This document shows, piece after piece, positions 734 to 12,366 of a stretch of 64,000 bases of DNA. The notes beneath the pieces are model-generated. The model was not told where the DNA came from and ran no database searches. It saw only the letters and a program-made list of their open reading frames with translations. Source of the DNA: a virus (lineage: Duplodnaviria; Caudoviricetes). The position numbers were made by a program, and so were the translations under genes. The stretch is taken from positions 1 through 64,000 of IMG/VR virus record IMGVR_UViG_3300031998_000040; one strand, written 5' to 3'. Numbering within the stretch: the stretch's first letter is position 1; each line of letters opens with the position of its first letter.

Positions 734-1375
734 TCAAAACCGAATCGGTGCTCCGGGGCGCTTCCCGGTCTGTACCGATTCCCAAAATTCTTCCTCTTGC
801 TGAAGCAGCCAAGCCATGTCTTCTTCGCAGTCTGCGCGTTCATAGCGGTATTCCCGCAGGATAATGTCTCCGCTCCGCGTCCAAAGGGCTGCTTGCAGGA
901 TGGCGAAGTCAAAGCCGGTTGCCAAAAGCTGATGGCAGATTTGGGCATAGTAGTGATTCGGCGCTTTTCCGTCCCACTCTGCCCACGACGCTTTCCCATT
1001 TGGGCTGGCCGTCTTGACTTCCAAAATTCCCGTCTTTCCATCATCGGGAAAGAATTCGCCGTCCAGTGTCGCAAACAGCCAGGGGCGATCTTCCTGATAC
1101 AAAATGTCGAAGGGGTGATATACGATTTTTCCGGGGTGAAGGGCCGCAAAGAAGTTTCGCACCGCTCCCTCCATGTTCACCCCGCGCTGCACTTCCGCAT
1201 TGTCGGAAATGTCCTTGGCCTTGCGGATTCCTCGCTTGAGTTCCCAAAGTTCGTTCTTTGTCGTCCACGGGGACATCCCGCAGACCGCCGCCGCTTCGCT
1301 GGCCCCGATCCCCCGTTCCGAGCGTCCCGCCAGCCAGGATGCCCGATCCGGGTAACTGATTCGCTGTAGTGCCAT
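734..1375 (-). CDS. YqaJ-like viral recombinase exonuclease
   Basis: WLAGR..GIGASEAAAVCGMSPW, ATLDG, LEVKT, YYAQ motifs. Confidence 0.92.
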   Translation of the reverse strand: MALQRISYPDRASWLAGRSERGIGASEAAAVCGMSPWTTKNELWELKRGIRKAKDISDNAEVQRGVNMEGAVRNFFAALHPGKIVYHPFDILYQEDRPWLFATLDGEFFPDDGKTGILEVKTASPNGKASWAEWDGKAPNHYYAQICHQLLATGFDFAILQAALWTRSGDIILREYRYERADCEEDMAWLLQQEEEFWESVQTGKRPGAPIRF

Positions 1376-1390
1376 GAGTTGTTCCTTTCT

Positions 1391-2022
1391 GATTCATTGC
1401 CCAGCCAGGTAAGGCTCAGCCCCGCTTTTCCGTTACTTTTCCGTGTGGTCCATGCTTTGCTGTTCCCCTGCGTTGCTTCTCGTTGCTGTTCCCCTGCGTT
1501 GCTTCTCGAAGCACAGCGAGTCTGCGCATTGCCATTGCTGTACCAGTCGGGGCAAATCCACGCTCCTCTTCGCCGTTGCTTTGCGTGGCTAAACATCGCT
1601 GTTCCGCTGCCACTCATGGCAGAACGTAACGATGCCTTTCCTACGCTTTGCCTATCCGTGCTTTGCCGTTGCCGTTACACGCTACGCACTACCATGCTCC
1701 GCCGCTGCTTCTCTACGCATCGTCTGGCTCTTCGGTGCCGTTGCATTGCTGAGCGGTGCAAGTCCATTCCCTTGCCGTTCTAAGCAGAACATATCTTTGC
1801 CTTAGCGGAGCGGTGCCCGTCCCCGCAGTGCCCATCCGTTGCCGTTCCTCGCTGAGCCAAGCCATGCCATTGCAACGCAAAGCGACGCAACGCAATGCAT
1901 GGAAAAGCCTTGCTAGGCCGCTCCAATCCTTTCCGATGCATGGATTATTGTTGCAATGCCCCCGGCAACTCAGACCTGTGCTTCTCCCTTGCGTGGTGCT
2001 GCGGTTCTACGCGAGGCGATTC
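1391..2022 (-). repeat. periodic non-coding array: ~18 units, mostly of 4-7 G[C/A/T]NNN pentamers, each closed by a GCARNG-type hexamer; candidate guide-RNA array
   Basis: Minus strand parses in phase, e.g. GCAAA GATAT GTTCT GCTTA GAACG GCAAGG | GAATG GACTT GCACC GCTCA GCAAT GCAACG; runs from the cas7-like stop codon to the yqaJ RBS. Confidence 0.88.
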
Positions 2023-2703
2023 TTATGCCTTGTTGCCACCGACAACCTTACCGTTGTCGTCCAGTTCCTCCCATTCAAAGCGGCCTTTGCCGGAGTTGCG
2101 CCACTGGCCGAGACCACGCAGGATACCGTAGTCCAGCCATTCCCGGACAGCCGCCTTGTGGCTTTCATCGAGGCATACCACGTCAAAGGTAAGCACCGCA
2201 CCCGCAGGAACTTCGTCGCTGCTGGCGAGGCTGACGCGCTCACCCTGCATGGTCTGCGCCCGCAGGGGGCGCTGGCAGTCCAGCATTTCTCCGTCAAAGG
2301 CGATGGGGATTTTCCGGGGCTGGACGAAGATCAGACCGTCGATGATCTTCTTGTACGCGGTCAGCTTGCCGCTTTCGTTGGAAGCCTTTTTTGTAGACTT
2401 CTTCTTGCCCTTGTCATCCACGATGTCCTCTTTCTTGGAAAGACGGGCCAGCATGGAACAGGCGTCCTTGAAGAAGCCCTTGATCTGGTAGTCGTACACG
2501 AAGGGGGTGCCGTCCTCCAACCGGGGGAACACCGTGCGTCCCTTCTCTTTCACGGCATCGGTGCCAAGCACTTCGATCTCTTCCGTCAGCGTAGCGGCGT
2601 CCGGCGCGTTCTTGCCGATAAAGTCGGCGTAGACTTCCGCGTTCGCTGGGGAAGTCCCCAGCATACCTTCCAGCGTGGTGATCCTGATGTGCATTTTTCC
2701 CAT
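2023..2703 (-). CDS. stand-alone RAMP/Cas7-like protein (Csm3/Cmr4-like fold)
   Basis: N-terminal strand MHIRITTLEGMLG, 'PFVYDYQIKGFFK' helix motif, 'EVPAGAVLTFDV', C-terminal Gly loop GLGQWRNSGKGRF; no other cas genes in the window. Confidence 0.8.
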   Translation of the reverse strand: MGKMHIRITTLEGMLGTSPANAEVYADFIGKNAPDAATLTEEIEVLGTDAVKEKGRTVFPRLEDGTPFVYDYQIKGFFKDACSMLARLSKKEDIVDDKGKKKSTKKASNESGKLTAYKKIIDGLIFVQPRKIPIAFDGEMLDCQRPLRAQTMQGERVSLASSDEVPAGAVLTFDVVCLDESHKAAVREWLDYGILRGLGQWRNSGKGRFEWEELDDNGKVVGGNKA

Positions 2704-2800
2704 TGAGTTCTTCCTCCATTTGTGTTATCATGGAGGCGAAGGGGTCAGACCTTTCGCCTCATAGCCGTTTCGGACGTGCCACCGTCCGGGCGGCTTTTTT
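2703..2800 (+). promoter_or_regulatory. antisense sigmaA promoter, two hairpins and terminator (putative ~65-nt sRNA)
   Basis: TTGAGT-17-TATCAT with TG extension (2703-2731); hairpins GAGGCGAAGG/CCTTTCGCCTC and AGCCG..CGGCT followed by TTTTT. Confidence 0.5.
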
Positions 2801-3009
2801 CATTTGTTCAGGGTGTATCTTGCGTACCGCGTTGGATCGCCGTGACGGTCCACCCCGGTTTCCAGCTTGGAAGTGATGGAGTGACCATCCCTTTTCAAAT
2901 CCCAAATTCGAGCACCCAAACGGGTACACCCAAATTCCGTTATGGCTTCCCACGGGGTAATGCTCCCGTGCTCCTCCATATACTTCAGGACGCGCTCTTT
3001 GTCGGTCAT
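2800..3009 (-). CDS. winged-helix HTH protein
   Basis: VLKYMEEHGSITPWEAITEFGCTRLGARIWDLKRDG. Confidence 0.8.
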   Translation of the reverse strand: MTDKERVLKYMEEHGSITPWEAITEFGCTRLGARIWDLKRDGHSITSKLETGVDRHGDPTRYARYTLNK

Positions 3010-3584
3010 GCTGTCGCCTCCAACTTCTTCGCCGCGTGTTTCTCGCGCCGCTTGGCGTTGATCTCGTCCTTGTGCTTCTCCCACCAGGCGCGTTTGATTG
3101 CCTTGCTACGTTCAGGGTTGGCTTTCCGCCAAGCCGCGCTTCTCGCGTTGTTTTCTTCCCGGTGGTCTTTGGTGTACTGGCGAGAGTAGGCATTGTGTTC
3201 GTCCTTGTGGTCGATGTGGTATTGCCGCTGGTATTCTGCGATGGATTCCCGGTTGGCGTCTGCGTAGGCTTTCCGGCGCTCCAAAATGTCCGGTTTGTGT
3301 TCGGCGAAGTATCGCTGCCTGTATGCCTTGATTTCATCCGCGTGGGCTGCAGCATACTCACAGTTCCTCGCAACAATGCGCTCTTTGTTCTTCCGGTAGT
3401 ATTCTCGGTCCGCTTTCCGCTTCCGCAACCGCTTCGGTTCGGCTCGCTCGTCGAGGATGCTTTGGTCTCGGAGTCGGGCGGCTTCCACTTCGGAAGGGTC
3501 GTAGTCGTGCTGTTCTTCCACTTCCGCATCGAACGCTGCCAGTTCCGTCAGTTCCTCCGGGGTAAAGGGAATAAAGGCACTCAC
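3006..3584 (-). CDS. charged repetitive helical protein
   Basis: REYYRKNKE/RQYHIDHKDE-type repeats; GTG start coupled to the upstream stop. Confidence 0.65.
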   Translation of the reverse strand: MSAFIPFTPEELTELAAFDAEVEEQHDYDPSEVEAARLRDQSILDERAEPKRLRKRKADREYYRKNKERIVARNCEYAAAHADEIKAYRQRYFAEHKPDILERRKAYADANRESIAEYQRQYHIDHKDEHNAYSRQYTKDHREENNARSAAWRKANPERSKAIKRAWWEKHKDEINAKRREKHAAKKLEATA

Positions 3585-3888: not shown

Positions 3889-4429
3889 CCGCCTTTCTTC
3901 CGCTCAGAAGGAAGTCAATCGTAACTCCGAAGTAATCGGCGACCTTCTGAAGCGTAGTAATGCTCGGAGCGGAGTTCTCCCAGCCTCTTACCGTGCCGTT
4001 TCCAAGGCCGGCCTCTTTTTCAAGTCGGGCTACGCGGATGTTCCTTTCGCGGCACAGCGCCATGACATTCTTGTAGACTTTATTTCCATTGTCAGAAGAA
4101 TGATCCCGCTTGGTATATTTTCTTGGTCGCAGTCCGTATGACCATGCGTGGGCTGAGTTTTCCTTTGCTGTAACCCACTCAAGGTTGGATACGTTATTGT
4201 TTCTCTTGTTTCCGTCTTTGTGGTTTACCATTGGCTTGTTCTCTGGATTTGGAATAAATGCCTCGGCTACCAGGCGATGAACCATACGGCTTTTGTCAGG
4301 CATCTTTACCGTTGCGTAACCCGCTGTGTCTGTGATTGTTGGAGTACATTCCGTATTCCCAACCAGGCGAAAAACCGCACCGTTCTCGTAAACCCTGATT
4401 TTTCCTTCATAGATATCCCGGAATCTCAC
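3869..4429 (-). CDS. HNH endonuclease fused to an XRE HTH
   Basis: VHRLVAEAFIPNPENKPMVNHKDGNKRNNNVSNLEW plus C-terminal LEKEAGLGNGTVRGW..LQKVADYFGVTIDFLL. Confidence 0.85.
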   Translation of the reverse strand: MRFRDIYEGKIRVYENGAVFRLVGNTECTPTITDTAGYATVKMPDKSRMVHRLVAEAFIPNPENKPMVNHKDGNKRNNNVSNLEWVTAKENSAHAWSYGLRPRKYTKRDHSSDNGNKVYKNVMALCRERNIRVARLEKEAGLGNGTVRGWENSAPSITTLQKVADYFGVTIDFLLSGRKAGAADGS

Positions 4430-4644
4430 TTCGGCTCCTCCCCTCGGCTTTCTGTCGCATTGCGCTGTTTCAGCCTTTCCAAAGCCTCTTTCATTTTTGC
4501 TTCCACGTTGGGAGAAACCGCCTTTCCGTGAAGGACCTGGCTTACATACTTGGGGTTGATCTTTGCTTCTGCGGCCACTTCCTTGATCTTGAATCCGGCG
4601 TTATGGATTTCTCCGATAAGTTCGCCGGTCCACTGTTCAGGCAT
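4426..4644 (-). CDS. Cro-like repressor
   Basis: IKEVAAEAKINPKYVSQVLHG HTH; divergent from cI. Confidence 0.75.
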   Translation of the reverse strand: MPEQWTGELIGEIHNAGFKIKEVAAEAKINPKYVSQVLHGKAVSPNVEAKMKEALERLKQRNATESRGEEPK

Positions 4645-4675
4645 AATATTTCTTACCTCCTTCCTACATTGGCAC

Positions 4676-4704
4676 TTGACTTTGGTTAGGTGCTGGGTTA
4701 GAAT
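4676..4704 (+). promoter_or_regulatory. rightward (cI) sigmaA promoter
   Basis: TTGACT-17-TAGAAT; two GGTTAG boxes in the spacer/-10. Confidence 0.65.
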
Positions 4705-4784
4705 AGCTATGCCACTAACTAAATCCAGACCCAGCGGCCTAACCATGTCCGGCTGACTTCTTACCGAAATCAACTTTCCCCTCC

Positions 4785-4868: not shown

Positions 4869-5432
4869 TTGGTGTTTTTGCATATATTCGGTGCGCTGTG
4901 TGAGAAGAACGGAGAGTCCAAGAGCGCCGTTGCAAAAGCCTGTGGATTGAGTAATTCAACCGTTACAAAATGGAAAAAGACCCAGGCTGTGCCTGAGTCT
5001 TCTACGCTTATGAAGATCGCCGAACATTTTGGCGTCACCGTGGATTACCTTCTCGGCTCCACTCCGGAGTCCTATCTTCTCGGAACAGAGTATCAATTAA
5101 AGGAGGCGGAAAAGGCATACGACAAAGAAACCAACCCTGATAAGCGTGACGAGCTTGGCGGTTTGATTGACGTTCTGCGTGATTCTGTTGAAGATCAGAA
5201 GCTTGCGATCTCCGCAGCAAAAATGCCCGTTACCGAGACCGGCAACGGGCGAAAGGAAATGCCTGTAAATATCAATGATTTTCTTCGAGCGTTCTCGTCA
5301 CTTCCAGAAGAAGATCAGAAGGGTCTTGCCCGGATTGTCGAGCTTTACCGCAATACCGGATCAGCCGCATCACAAACGATTGCGCTTCTGGTGTCATTGC
5401 TTGAAAATCAGCAGCCACCGTCTCAAGATTGA
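4869..5432 (+). CDS. CI-like XRE repressor
   Basis: SAVAKACGLSNSTVTKWK..LMKIAEHFGVTVDYLLG; upstream of the integrase. Confidence 0.88.
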   Translation: MVFLHIFGALCEKNGESKSAVAKACGLSNSTVTKWKKTQAVPESSTLMKIAEHFGVTVDYLLGSTPESYLLGTEYQLKEAEKAYDKETNPDKRDELGGLIDVLRDSVEDQKLAISAAKMPVTETGNGRKEMPVNINDFLRAFSSLPEEDQKGLARIVELYRNTGSAASQTIALLVSLLENQQPPSQD

Positions 5433-5608: not shown

Positions 5609-6640
5609 TTGAACTACGCCAAGCTTTTCACGAAGCGAAAGGACGGAAGCTATCAGGCAAAGTATAAGGATTCGTCCGGGAAATGGCGCACCGTCAGTTC
5701 CACCGATCCGAAGAAGCTATTTGAAAGGCTGGAGGAATTAAGGAAGCCCAAGCCGATAACCTTCGGTCTGCTGATTGACGAGTGGCAGGCAGAGCACGAT
5801 GCTGAATCCGCGTTCAAGACGGCGGAGACGTATGCCGCTCCATGCCGTCGTCTGAAAGACGAGTTCGGGGATATCCCCGCAGACGAGATCAAGCCACTGG
5901 AGTTGCAGAACTTTCTTGGGAGAATGGCTAGGCAGAAGTACAGCCGGAGAAACGTACAGCTTCACCTTACCGTGATCCGCCTTGTCTGCCAGCGGGCGGT
6001 CCTGCTGGGGAAGCTGGATGTAGATCCTTCTACCGTGCTTTCTGTTCCGAAGGGTTTAACGCAGAAGCGACGGGAAGTGCCGGAGGATGCCGCCCTCGCC
6101 GCTGTGCTTGCATCTCAGAAAGAAGAGATGGGGTTGTATGCTCTTACCCTTCTCTACACCGGGCTGCGCCGCGGCGAAGCGCTGGCTCTCAAATATGAAG
6201 ACATAGACCGCAAGAACCGGGTCATCCATGTGCGTCGGTCTTTGCAGTTCGTTCCGAACTTCCCGGAAGTCAAAGAGCCAAAGACGGCAGCCGGTATCCG
6301 TGACGTATATTACCCGGAAGCCCTGGACAAGCTTTTGCCAAAAAAGAAATCGGGGCCGGTGTTCCCCGGTCCCGATGGAAAAAACTATATGAATAAGGGC
6401 AACTTCATTTACCGCTGGCAGAAGTATTGCGAGGCCATCGGTCACAACATCACGAGTCACCAGCTCCGACACTACTATGCCACTGCCATGTACGAGGCGG
6501 ACGTTCCGGTGCTTGCGGCGCAAGCCCAGCTCGGCCACAAGAACGCTTCGACCACGATGGGGATATATACCCATCTGCGGGATGCCAAGCGTGACGAGGC
6601 CAACAAGAAGATAGACGAGTATTTTAACAAAGCCAAATAG
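5609..6640 (+). CDS. int: tyrosine integrase
   Basis: TGLRRGE, KT, HQLRH, LGH, IY catalytic motifs; arm-binding-type N-terminus. Confidence 0.95.
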   Translation: MNYAKLFTKRKDGSYQAKYKDSSGKWRTVSSTDPKKLFERLEELRKPKPITFGLLIDEWQAEHDAESAFKTAETYAAPCRRLKDEFGDIPADEIKPLELQNFLGRMARQKYSRRNVQLHLTVIRLVCQRAVLLGKLDVDPSTVLSVPKGLTQKRREVPEDAALAAVLASQKEEMGLYALTLLYTGLRRGEALALKYEDIDRKNRVIHVRRSLQFVPNFPEVKEPKTAAGIRDVYYPEALDKLLPKKKSGPVFPGPDGKNYMNKGNFIYRWQKYCEAIGHNITSHQLRHYYATAMYEADVPVLAAQAQLGHKNASTTMGIYTHLRDAKRDEANKKIDEYFNKAK

Positions 6641-11424: not shown

Positions 11425-11499
11425 TGGCAGGGATGGCAGGATTCGGACCTGCGAGTAACTGGTTCAAAGCCAGATGCCTTACCGCTTGGCGACATCCCC
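11425..11499 (-). tRNA. tRNA-Gln(UUG)
   Basis: Cloverleaf GGGGATG..CTGG CTTTGAA CCAG..CATCCCTGCCA with encoded CCA. Confidence 0.9.
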
Positions 11500-11803
11500 G
11501 TGTCTCACAATATCGGCGGAGGAACGGTAGCCGTAACCCTACACCACGCCAGGGCACTCACGAGTTGGCCCGCGTCGCCACGCCACGTCCTCACCTTTGG
11601 TTGAGGCTCCCAAAGCCTCCGCCGCTACCACGGAACTTTTCAGCCCTGCGCCCGCACAGGTCGCATCCGTTTCTTCTCAGGCCGGAGCCAGCCCACTATT
11701 CATCATCCGCCGGGATTGTGCGCTCCCGCACGGTGAAGCCCTTCTGCGCCCCGACCGGTGAAATGGGGGGTGGCCGCTTTGTGTAGGCGCAGCATATAGG
11801 GCG

Positions 11804-11877
11804 TGGAGCGAGTGACCGGATTTGAACCGGCGCTCCCAGCTTGGAGGGCTGGTGTTCTACCTCTGAACTACACCCGC
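11804..11877 (-). tRNA. tRNA-Gly(UCC)
   Basis: GCGGGTG..CCAGC CCTCCAA GCTGG..CACTCGCTCCA. Confidence 0.9.
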
Positions 11878-11884
11878 GCAAAAA

Positions 11885-12259
11885 TGGAGGAAGGTGATAT
11901 TGCAGTCCATGCGCCCCCCGGAGTCGAACCAGGAGACAAGCGGACTCGAACCACTCTCGCACACCTTCGCGGGACCGTCCCGCGTGGACTCCACTGTTGC
12001 CGTCTGTTCCGTGCTGCCACCCGAATTGCCGTTTTACACTACTCCTGTCGGTTTCGTTTCGTAACCAACCTGCGTTTCTCCGACACTCACCCGGCTCGTC
12101 CGTCCGGGACTGCACATATTGCATCGGCGCTTGGCTGGAATATTGGCTTTGGAACCCCGCCGCGCTTGGCCTTATCACCGACCCTCGTGCGTTTCGCGGC
12201 TTACCAAGCCGCCGCTATCCGGATAGCAGACACGAATCCAGCTTCTCGCGCTTCCTCCA
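11885..12259 (-). ncRNA. ~375-nt highly structured RNA (ROOL/GOLLD-like candidate)
   Basis: Closing stem TGGAGGAAG/CTTCCTCCA, inner TGCAGTCC/GGACTGCA, many hairpins, two T-loops; lies between tRNA elements. Confidence 0.65.
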
Positions 12260-12275
12260 CCGCTTGCGGGGTTTG

Positions 12276-12366
12276 TACCGGGGGTGGGACTCGAACCCAC
12301 GACCAAGGGCATTCAACAGCAATATCCCTTCTCGCTGTAAAGCTCTACCGACTGAGCTACCCCGGC
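12276..12366 (-). ncRNA. tRNA-like RNA with an expanded, pseudoknotted anticodon domain
   Basis: Canonical acceptor, D and T arms; 41 nt between D and T arms instead of ~23; no encoded CCA. Confidence 0.7.

Follow-up and report, generated by a model that had tools for sequence, protein, structure and literature searches.

Background

VIPR (Viral Interference Programmable Repeat) systems, first described in 2026, are the closest described relatives of the locus analysed here, a gene for a small Cas7-like protein with an adjoining array of pentamers. It lies in a window of 64,000 nucleotides (nt), which covers positions 1-64,000 of the virus record IMGVR_UViG_3300031998_000040 (full record 98,344 nt, rated complete by CheckV). 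According to the first preprint, phage Vipr proteins are minimal RAMPs, found by structure search, that bind vrRNAs made of GGY/NN pentamers; their recognition of double-stranded DNA skips every third base of the target, and it silences competing phages and satellites (10.64898/2026.04.26.720920). Electron cryo-microscopy of the system from Escherichia phage SUSP1 gave one protomer per 5-nt repeat in a helix with six protomers per turn, where the first G of the repeat (G1) is read by H17 and D177, the second (G2) lies between R138 and W178, and the following pyrimidine (Y3) is set against R179 (10.64898/2026.04.26.720927). In the first preprint, which distinguishes seven types of VIPR (I-VII), repeats of some loci are given as NNNGG, YNNNG or NNNNG, and "staggered arrays" are mentioned, in which vrRNAs meet with a 1-nt overlap (10.64898/2026.04.26.720920, fig. 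S17, S18; methods). As far as these accounts go, only the GGY/NN type was tested and solved (10.64898/2026.04.26.720920, 10.64898/2026.04.26.720927). A genomic language model has found 21 clusters of period 5 with non-canonical motifs and a Vipr-like fold nearby (10.64898/2026.10.21.760802).

We consider it highly probable that the locus in the window is a VIPR module of a temperate gut phage, composed of Vipr (a minimal Cas7-like RAMP) and a staggered guide-RNA array placed in the 3' untranslated region of its gene. Its parts are the following:

2023 to 2703, minus strand: vipr-like gene, 226 amino acids (aa), a stand-alone RAMP (Cas7-like)
1466 to 2022, minus strand: variable vrRNA-like array of G-[C/A]-NNN pentamers in abutting units of 5n+1 nt, with terminal hexamers of the GC[A/G]ANG type
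1376 to 1465, minus strand: trailer of the array, near-identical in the relatives L155, L156 and L157, extending as far as the YqaJ gene's ribosome-binding site
734 to 1375, minus strand: gene for a YqaJ-like phage recombination exonuclease (Pfam PF09588, E 1.4e-24), the next gene 3' of the array

Architecture of the array

On the minus strand of 1391-2022 (632 nt), lags of 5, 10, 15 and 26 nt give autocorrelations of G of +0.44, +0.30, +0.27 and +0.33, and the phase of G shifts by +1 roughly every 26-41 nt. A period of five with +1 slips is what the original prediction, made from the letters of the window alone, had expected of this strand. When the lag-5 signal was scanned over the whole record, the top nine of 3,928 windows of 150 nt all fell at 1395-1994 on the minus strand, with values of 0.33-0.62 against a background of -0.014 +/- 0.088. 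The periodic array beside the RAMP gene is confirmed as a real feature.

The array begins at the first base past the vipr stop codon and continues on the same strand for about 560-630 nt. The starting point had been foreseen correctly; the proposed extent of ~630 nt has to be revised, as the regular array covers 2022-1466 and gives way to the conserved trailer at 1465-1376. A parse by dynamic programming, in which G anchors 5 nt apart were rewarded and slips penalised, resulted in 20 lines, 15 of them units of 5-13 pentamers closed by a hexamer. The usual unit has 5-8 pentamers and one extra G, giving 5n+1 nt, and the lengths found are 26, 31, 36 and 41 nt, plus a single unit of 66 nt. The closing hexamers, to which resetting of the phase had rightly been ascribed, are GCAACG (four times), GCAATG, GCAAGG, GCAGCG and GCAGGG (twice each), and GCTAAG, GCGTAG and GCCGGG (once each). 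Successive anchor Gs are spaced by 5 nt in 104 cases, by 6 nt in 19 and by 4 nt in one. The pentamer pattern G[C/A/T]NNN proposed earlier stands, except that its second position is mostly C or A and only rarely T.

We rejected the tract as a coding region. Its period is 5 and not 3, insertions and deletions between relatives measure 5 and 5n+1 nt, and open reading frames across it are unconserved; that it is non-coding agrees with the original prediction. Likewise rejected were a known RNA family, a hammerhead-interspersed array and a structured tail, for the array has no family match in Rfam and the predicted fold of its RNA is not more stable than that of shuffles (z -0.5). Two segments stand out within the array region:

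1457 to 1508, minus strand: perfect 26-nt tandem duplication (GAACA GCAAC GAGAA GCAAC GCAGGG; Tandem Repeats Finder, period 26, 2.0 copies, 100% match)
1868 to 1933, minus strand: atypical unit of 13 pentamers, defined by the parse and conserved in the closest relative, L155

The duplicated segment is one whole 5n+1 unit, which shows that arrays grow by duplication of whole units. In the 3' half of the long unit (1868-1900), the opposite strand also reads as pentamers of the GCAAC/GCAAA type, and the plus-strand lag-5 signal of G at this unit is 0.31-0.34. The half unit looks like an inverted piece of the array, and in the transcript it could pair with the ends of ordinary units.

The RAMP protein

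The 226-aa open reading frame with a glycine-rich loop, noticed in the original prediction, is present at 2023-2703 on the minus strand. The loop, GLGQWRNSGKGRF, spans residues 197-209 (codons 2077..2115, minus). In an alignment of close relatives (A1), residues G197, G199, Q200-S204, G205 and G207 are invariant; a diverse alignment (A2) keeps G207 throughout and varies only slightly at G197, Q200-N203 and F209. R145, also invariant in A2, belongs to a predicted thumb:

2209 to 2283 (codons), minus strand: predicted thumb beta-hairpin, residues 141-165 (model strands E141-151 and E154-165)

By its structure model the protein has a Cas7/RAMP fold, as had been proposed, and it matches best the Csm3 protein of type III CRISPR and the Cas7 of type VII. 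Searches with the protein against Pfam, PHROGs and PDB sequences returned nothing, and no Pfam Cas7 family appeared even at E 10. The family itself is large, with more than 7,600 clusters at 90% identity and 1,632 clusters at 50% identity (E<=1e-3). Relatives are encoded on more than 580 IMG/VR contigs, and members of the clade come mostly from phages of gut Clostridia and Coriobacteriia.

For comparison, the SUSP1 system was located in NC_028808.2 through its GGYNN runs, its Vipr being AVU07_agp039. While phmmer and tblastn gave no direct connection between the two proteins, hhalign aligned the window family over the full length both with SUSP1 Vipr (E 9.6e-5, probability 58%) and with an alignment of 33 SUSP1-like proteins (E 1.8e-4, probability 48%), pairing the glycine loop GLGQWRNSGKGRF of the window protein with CGVGDWRPRFGRF of SUSP1. 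The W and R that touch G2 and Y3 in SUSP1 are retained; D177 is replaced by Q200 and H17 by T17. The R145-P146 pair is perhaps equivalent to R138-P139 of SUSP1, a guess at the level of the motif, since hhalign left this stretch unaligned. The fixed G of the window array would correspond to G2 and the following C or A to Y3, with the old G1 position now free. In SUSP1 an aspartate and a histidine read the first G; that Q200 and T17 stand in their places here would explain why a single G is fixed. All 141 loci with a parsed array carry Q at residue 200, in a locus collection whose search itself used the GQWRN pattern.

The array as a family trait

We collected 68 loci of relatives from species genomes and 80 from IMG/VR, which together with the window make 149. 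The association of gene and array was assessed in the window and the 68 species-genome loci (69 in all, protein identity down to about 42%), where an array signal was accepted if the coding-strand lag-5 signal of G, at most 300 nt from the gene, exceeded the 99th percentile of 2,388 control windows. It did so in 65 of the 69 loci, downstream of the gene in 55 and upstream in 15, so the homologues do bear the adjoining array that had been anticipated for them. The relatives include metagenome-assembled genomes (MAGs) labelled as Clostridia, Coriobacteriia, Planctomycetota and Verrucomicrobiota, and one archaeon; in many relatives the array starts at the stop codon or within a few bases of it.

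Pooled over the family, position 1 of the pentamer is G in 93%, position 2 is C in 55% and A in 29%, and the four bases are nearly balanced at positions 3-5; the base that precedes the anchor G is G in just 27%. The pooled closing hexamer reads G(99%)-C(78%)-R-A(66%)-N-G(77%). Lengths of hexamer-bounded units peak at 26, 31 and 36 nt family-wide, and slips are strongly one-sided, with 975 six-nt against ~60 four-nt spacings (+1 to -1 about 16:1). The variable triplets of ~6,100 pentamers (loci L001-L154) show a shortage of TAA, TAG, TTA and CTA (0.53-0.67 of the expected frequency), none of TGA or TCA, and an excess of TTT (2.4 times the expected frequency). As TGA and TCA are spared, avoidance of stop codons was rejected as the cause, and avoidance of TpA is probably responsible.

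Anchor Gs lie on average 5.16 nt apart family-wide (the same loci L001-L154), so that two spacings make 10.3 nt. Two anchor spacings are thus near the helical repeat of DNA, and the six pentamers of the modal unit match one turn of the helix published for Vipr, with its six protomers. Such phasing, together with the recombination genes that adjoin the tract, could point to a tract that works as DNA, being a protein-binding or structural platform in which the Gs follow the helix at about half a turn (10.3 bp per two anchors). We hold this for very improbable. The signal is strand-specific, lying in every case on the strand that codes for the RAMP and abutting the RAMP gene; unit length is not fixed but ranges over 26-41 nt; the frame is retained amid hypervariable N positions; and the partner protein has an RNA-binding RAMP fold.

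Turnover of arrays

Arrays evolve far faster than the vipr gene. Where two loci encode Vipr proteins with at least 99.5% identity, they have a mean of 39% of units in common, and in 15 of the 32 pairs of this kind no unit is shared; loci with less than 90% Vipr identity have zero units in common. An extreme case is provided by two contigs of one Ellagibacter MAG (L040 and L041), where Vipr is 100% identical and the arrays of 23 and 32 units have none in common. They could represent two prophages, or strain variants that differ only in their guide repertoire. The three closest relatives of the window (L155-L157, 95% protein identity, with YqaJ downstream) share with it 2-5 of their 21-28 units; the ends of their arrays are conserved and the interiors divergent, and the intergenic length from vipr to YqaJ is 698-931 nt as compared to 719 nt in the window.

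Aligned arrays vary by substitutions at N positions, by 5-nt insertions and deletions and by gain or loss of whole units, and the G frame and the terminal hexamers are always retained. In near-identical pairs of units, changes at positions 3, 4 and 5 number 113, 106 and 108, those at position 2 number 90, and those at position 1 only 46. Turnover of arrays next to identical proteins is a possible strain-level marker of phage conflict.

These data also bear on the idea that the tract is a decaying or selfish expansion of simple sequence which has no function and lies beside the gene by accident. The unit duplication at 1457-1508 would suit such an expansion, as would the target searches described below, which found none. 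An accidental neighbour would hardly accompany the gene in 65 of 69 loci across several phyla, however, and the G frame and terminal hexamer are kept through rapid turnover; we therefore give this idea only a very small chance.

Possible mechanism

In the VIPR reading that we favour, the vipr gene and the array would be co-transcribed from an early operon on the cro side. We infer this from the start of the array right behind the stop codon and from the lack of any promoter-like or terminator-like site on the minus strand between gene and array. By homology, Vipr would polymerise along the array RNA with one protomer to each pentamer; R145 of the thumb and W201 of the glycine loop would hold the invariant G between them, like G2 in SUSP1, and the base after this G (C or A) would sit against R202. 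A unit can be written as G(MNNNG)n, so that an anchor G would flank each variable segment on both sides. When two such units abut, a G|G junction arises and the phase slips by +1. The slip may end one filament and start the next, or it may mark a cleavage site. The resulting guides would hold 5-8 protomers, close to a full turn of the six-protomer helix.

Through its exposed variable bases, the filament would then read double-stranded DNA of competitors, be they phages, prophages or satellites, and silence transcription from it. Silencing by binding is the likely mode, judging from the SUSP1 experiments and from a locus that has no nuclease or helicase partner. The original prediction had the NNN bases carry the target information and the hexamers delimit separate guides, and we retain both as plausible.

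We raise only tentatively, as a suggestion more doubtful than probable, that this clade reads its targets in a manner different from GGY/NN, with one anchor G, three exposed bases and self-delimiting guides of 5n+1 nt that need no tail or ribozyme. Should all three bases be read, a guide spanning a single helical turn might hold an address of 15-21 nt. If true, this would be a second, denser "noncontiguous code", and no shorter natural modules for programmable recognition of DNA would be known. Answers as to the number of bases read by a protomer, the cutting or delimiting of units and the targets of the guides would extend the published code and reveal the objects of conflict among gut prophages, and they could lead to programmable DNA binders of smaller size.

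Search for targets and points against the assignment

Several results weigh against assignment of the locus to VIPR, and the search for targets is among them. About 1,400 unique units (1,039-1,119 in the tests of the reading rules) were compared with 4 Mb of related phage DNA (the 149 loci, both strands) alongside reversed and shuffled controls, under about 50 rules that comprised all cyclic 2-base (target period 2-5) and 3-base (period 3-5) read-outs. No excess of guide-target matches over controls survived multiple testing in this DNA. The sole nominal signal (positions 3-4 with a 1-nt skip, units of seven pentamers) had 9 matches versus 3.4 expected (P 0.01) and was not robust across 9 tests. 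Tandem targets of two units, with gaps of -3 to +9, gave nothing. A rule of three paired bases and one skipped gave no excess in the local set (3 versus 0 perfect matches, 20 versus 22 with one mismatch) and no IMG/VR match for unit 1573. Five exact pattern scans of IMG/VR with units of the window returned no matches or chance-level ones; those with 9 and 71 matches were heterogeneous and chance-like, and other guides were not enriched at the matched loci. Reading of two bases per pentamer would specify just 8-12 nt per typical unit, which favours more than two bases read per pentamer, as an argument from information and not as evidence.

Other points concern the resemblance to known members. 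The match with SUSP1 Vipr is weak at the sequence level, hhalign giving it a probability of 48-58%. The canonical GGY/NN repeat is absent from the array, where only one G is fixed; still, the preprint allows related consensus sequences (YNNNG, NNNNG), so the missing GGY/NN is no bar to membership. The structured 3' tail of type II vrRNAs is absent as well, and the units end in the 6-nt GCRANG motif. No accessory (vap) gene, which in VIPR systems typically forms an operon with vipr, is conserved, and no neighbour family is common to more than 47 of the 149 loci. Staggered arrays, unlike two other architectures, are left unconfirmed by small-RNA sequencing in the preprint, which reports no targets for them (10.64898/2026.04.26.720920).

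One unit has a peculiar appearance when its variable bases are joined. Positions 3-5 of unit 1533-1573, concatenated, read GAAGGAG-N8-CTG-ACAAAT, and the related units L155:3086-3126 and L156:1312-1352 read AAAGGAG-N8-ATG-ACAAAT, with differences mostly in the spacer. The likeness to a Shine-Dalgarno sequence plus start codon may be a matter of chance, as such strings are not enriched among units.

The same filament of protein and RNA might also serve another job, either binding or cleavage of RNA or control of the phage's own early transcripts. The top structural matches, Csm3 and type VII Cas7, target RNA, the array is located in the 3' untranslated region of an early operon, and the contiguous triplets of unit 1533-1573 and its L155 and L156 variants resemble a ribosome-binding site followed by a start codon. 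On the other hand, characterised members of the family bind double-stranded DNA, the string resembling a ribosome-binding site has the polarity of mRNA and not of its antisense, and such strings make up 2.4% of 1,119 units versus 2.1% after shuffling. We regard a role of this kind as unlikely.

Genomic context

The remaining genes of the region are these:

beyond YqaJ in the leftward operon: DUF1351 gene (Pfam match)
2800 to 3084, minus strand: HTH_39 small winged-helix gene adjoining vipr on its upstream side (Pfam PF14090, E 1.5e-17)
4426 to 4773, minus strand: cro-like HTH gene (Pfam)
4869 to 5432, plus strand: cI-like repressor gene (Pfam)
5609 to 6640, plus strand: tyrosine integrase gene (Pfam)

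Counted from cI and the integrase, the leftward operon contains a cro-like HTH gene, an HNH-HTH gene, a small HTH gene, a gene for a 211-aa protein, HTH_39, vipr with the array, YqaJ and DUF1351. The integrase and the cI/cro module assign vipr, together with the array, to the leftward early operon of a temperate phage. The gap that separates HTH_39 from the vipr start codon holds two hairpins on the minus strand at 2735-2795; one is a G+C-rich stem flanked by a run of A and a run of T, terminator-like on the plus strand. The two might affect how far transcription reads through into vipr and its array. Synteny of the YqaJ gene is kept in L155 and L156.

As originally predicted, the locus stands apart from CRISPR adaptation genes and arrays: the 98,344-nt record has no profile match to Cas1 or Cas2 (other cas families were not searched), no CRISPR-like tandem array, no Rfam CRISPR repeat and no second RAMP gene.

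The commonest neighbour across relatives is a divergent cI-like repressor, found in 47 of 149 loci. A 263-aa protein comes second (41 of 149); we would guess from its sequence that it is Bro-like. HTH_39 was considered as a conserved partner of vipr and rejected, as just 2 of the 148 related loci contain a relative of it, which lies not beside vipr but ~3.6 kb downstream. One relative with 95% identity does have an HTH_39 gene directly upstream of vipr; in L155 no gene is called between a 214-aa gene and vipr. Elsewhere in the window, three tRNA genes score above the Rfam gathering threshold at 11428-12366 on the minus strand.

Comparison with known systems

The resemblance to VIPR that the original prediction noted is borne out by the two preprints (10.64898/2026.04.26.720920 and 10.64898/2026.04.26.720927), the SUSP1 structure having one protomer per 5-nt repeat. 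With the type II system of SUSP1 the window locus has in common a small stand-alone RAMP with a thumb and a G-x-G-[D/Q]-W-R...G-R-F loop, residence in a phage, lack of cas1/cas2 and of a CRISPR array, and same-strand 5-nt repeats beside the gene with fixed G and variable N, on which one protomer per repeat is to be expected. The two differ in the repeat itself, which is G-[C/A]-NNN in the window and GG-Y-NN in SUSP1. They differ also in the units, which are abutting, tail-less and of 5-8 repeats here, whereas the vrRNAs of SUSP1 have 9-16 repeats and a pseudoknotted tail of 40 nt. A vap gene is lacking at the window locus.

Backbones of the Cas7 type (Csm3, type VII Cas7, domains of Cas7-11) are more distant, with a period of 6 in contrast to 5 in the window. 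The locus has no repeat handle of CRISPR RNA, no Cas5, Cas6 or large subunit and no adaptation genes, and its guide information is interleaved with fixed bases, whereas the guides of Cas7 effectors are contiguous. The language-model clusters (10.64898/2026.10.21.760802) are alike in having period-5 arrays, a Vipr-like fold nearby and motifs that depart from GGY/NN. Their motifs, GAC/NN, CAC/NN, WGT/NN and TGH/NN, have three constrained positions and ~10 repeats; the window array constrains one or two positions and has shorter, staggered units.

A fit is also provided by the staggered arrays mentioned for other VIPR types in the first preprint, the wording of whose legend agrees with the G|G junctions and the +1 stagger of the window array. 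The repeat YNNNG, written in the register of the preprint, becomes G-Y-NNN in that of the window; position 2 of the window array is C or A (amino bases) and not strictly a pyrimidine. The original prediction had called the code different from GGY/NN. Such a code, with one fixed G, three variable bases and hexamer punctuation, is probably not new, for the preprint already lists YNNNG, NNNNG and staggered arrays. The best-supported placement of the window locus is therefore within the published VIPR family, in a form that the publications mention but leave uncharacterised.

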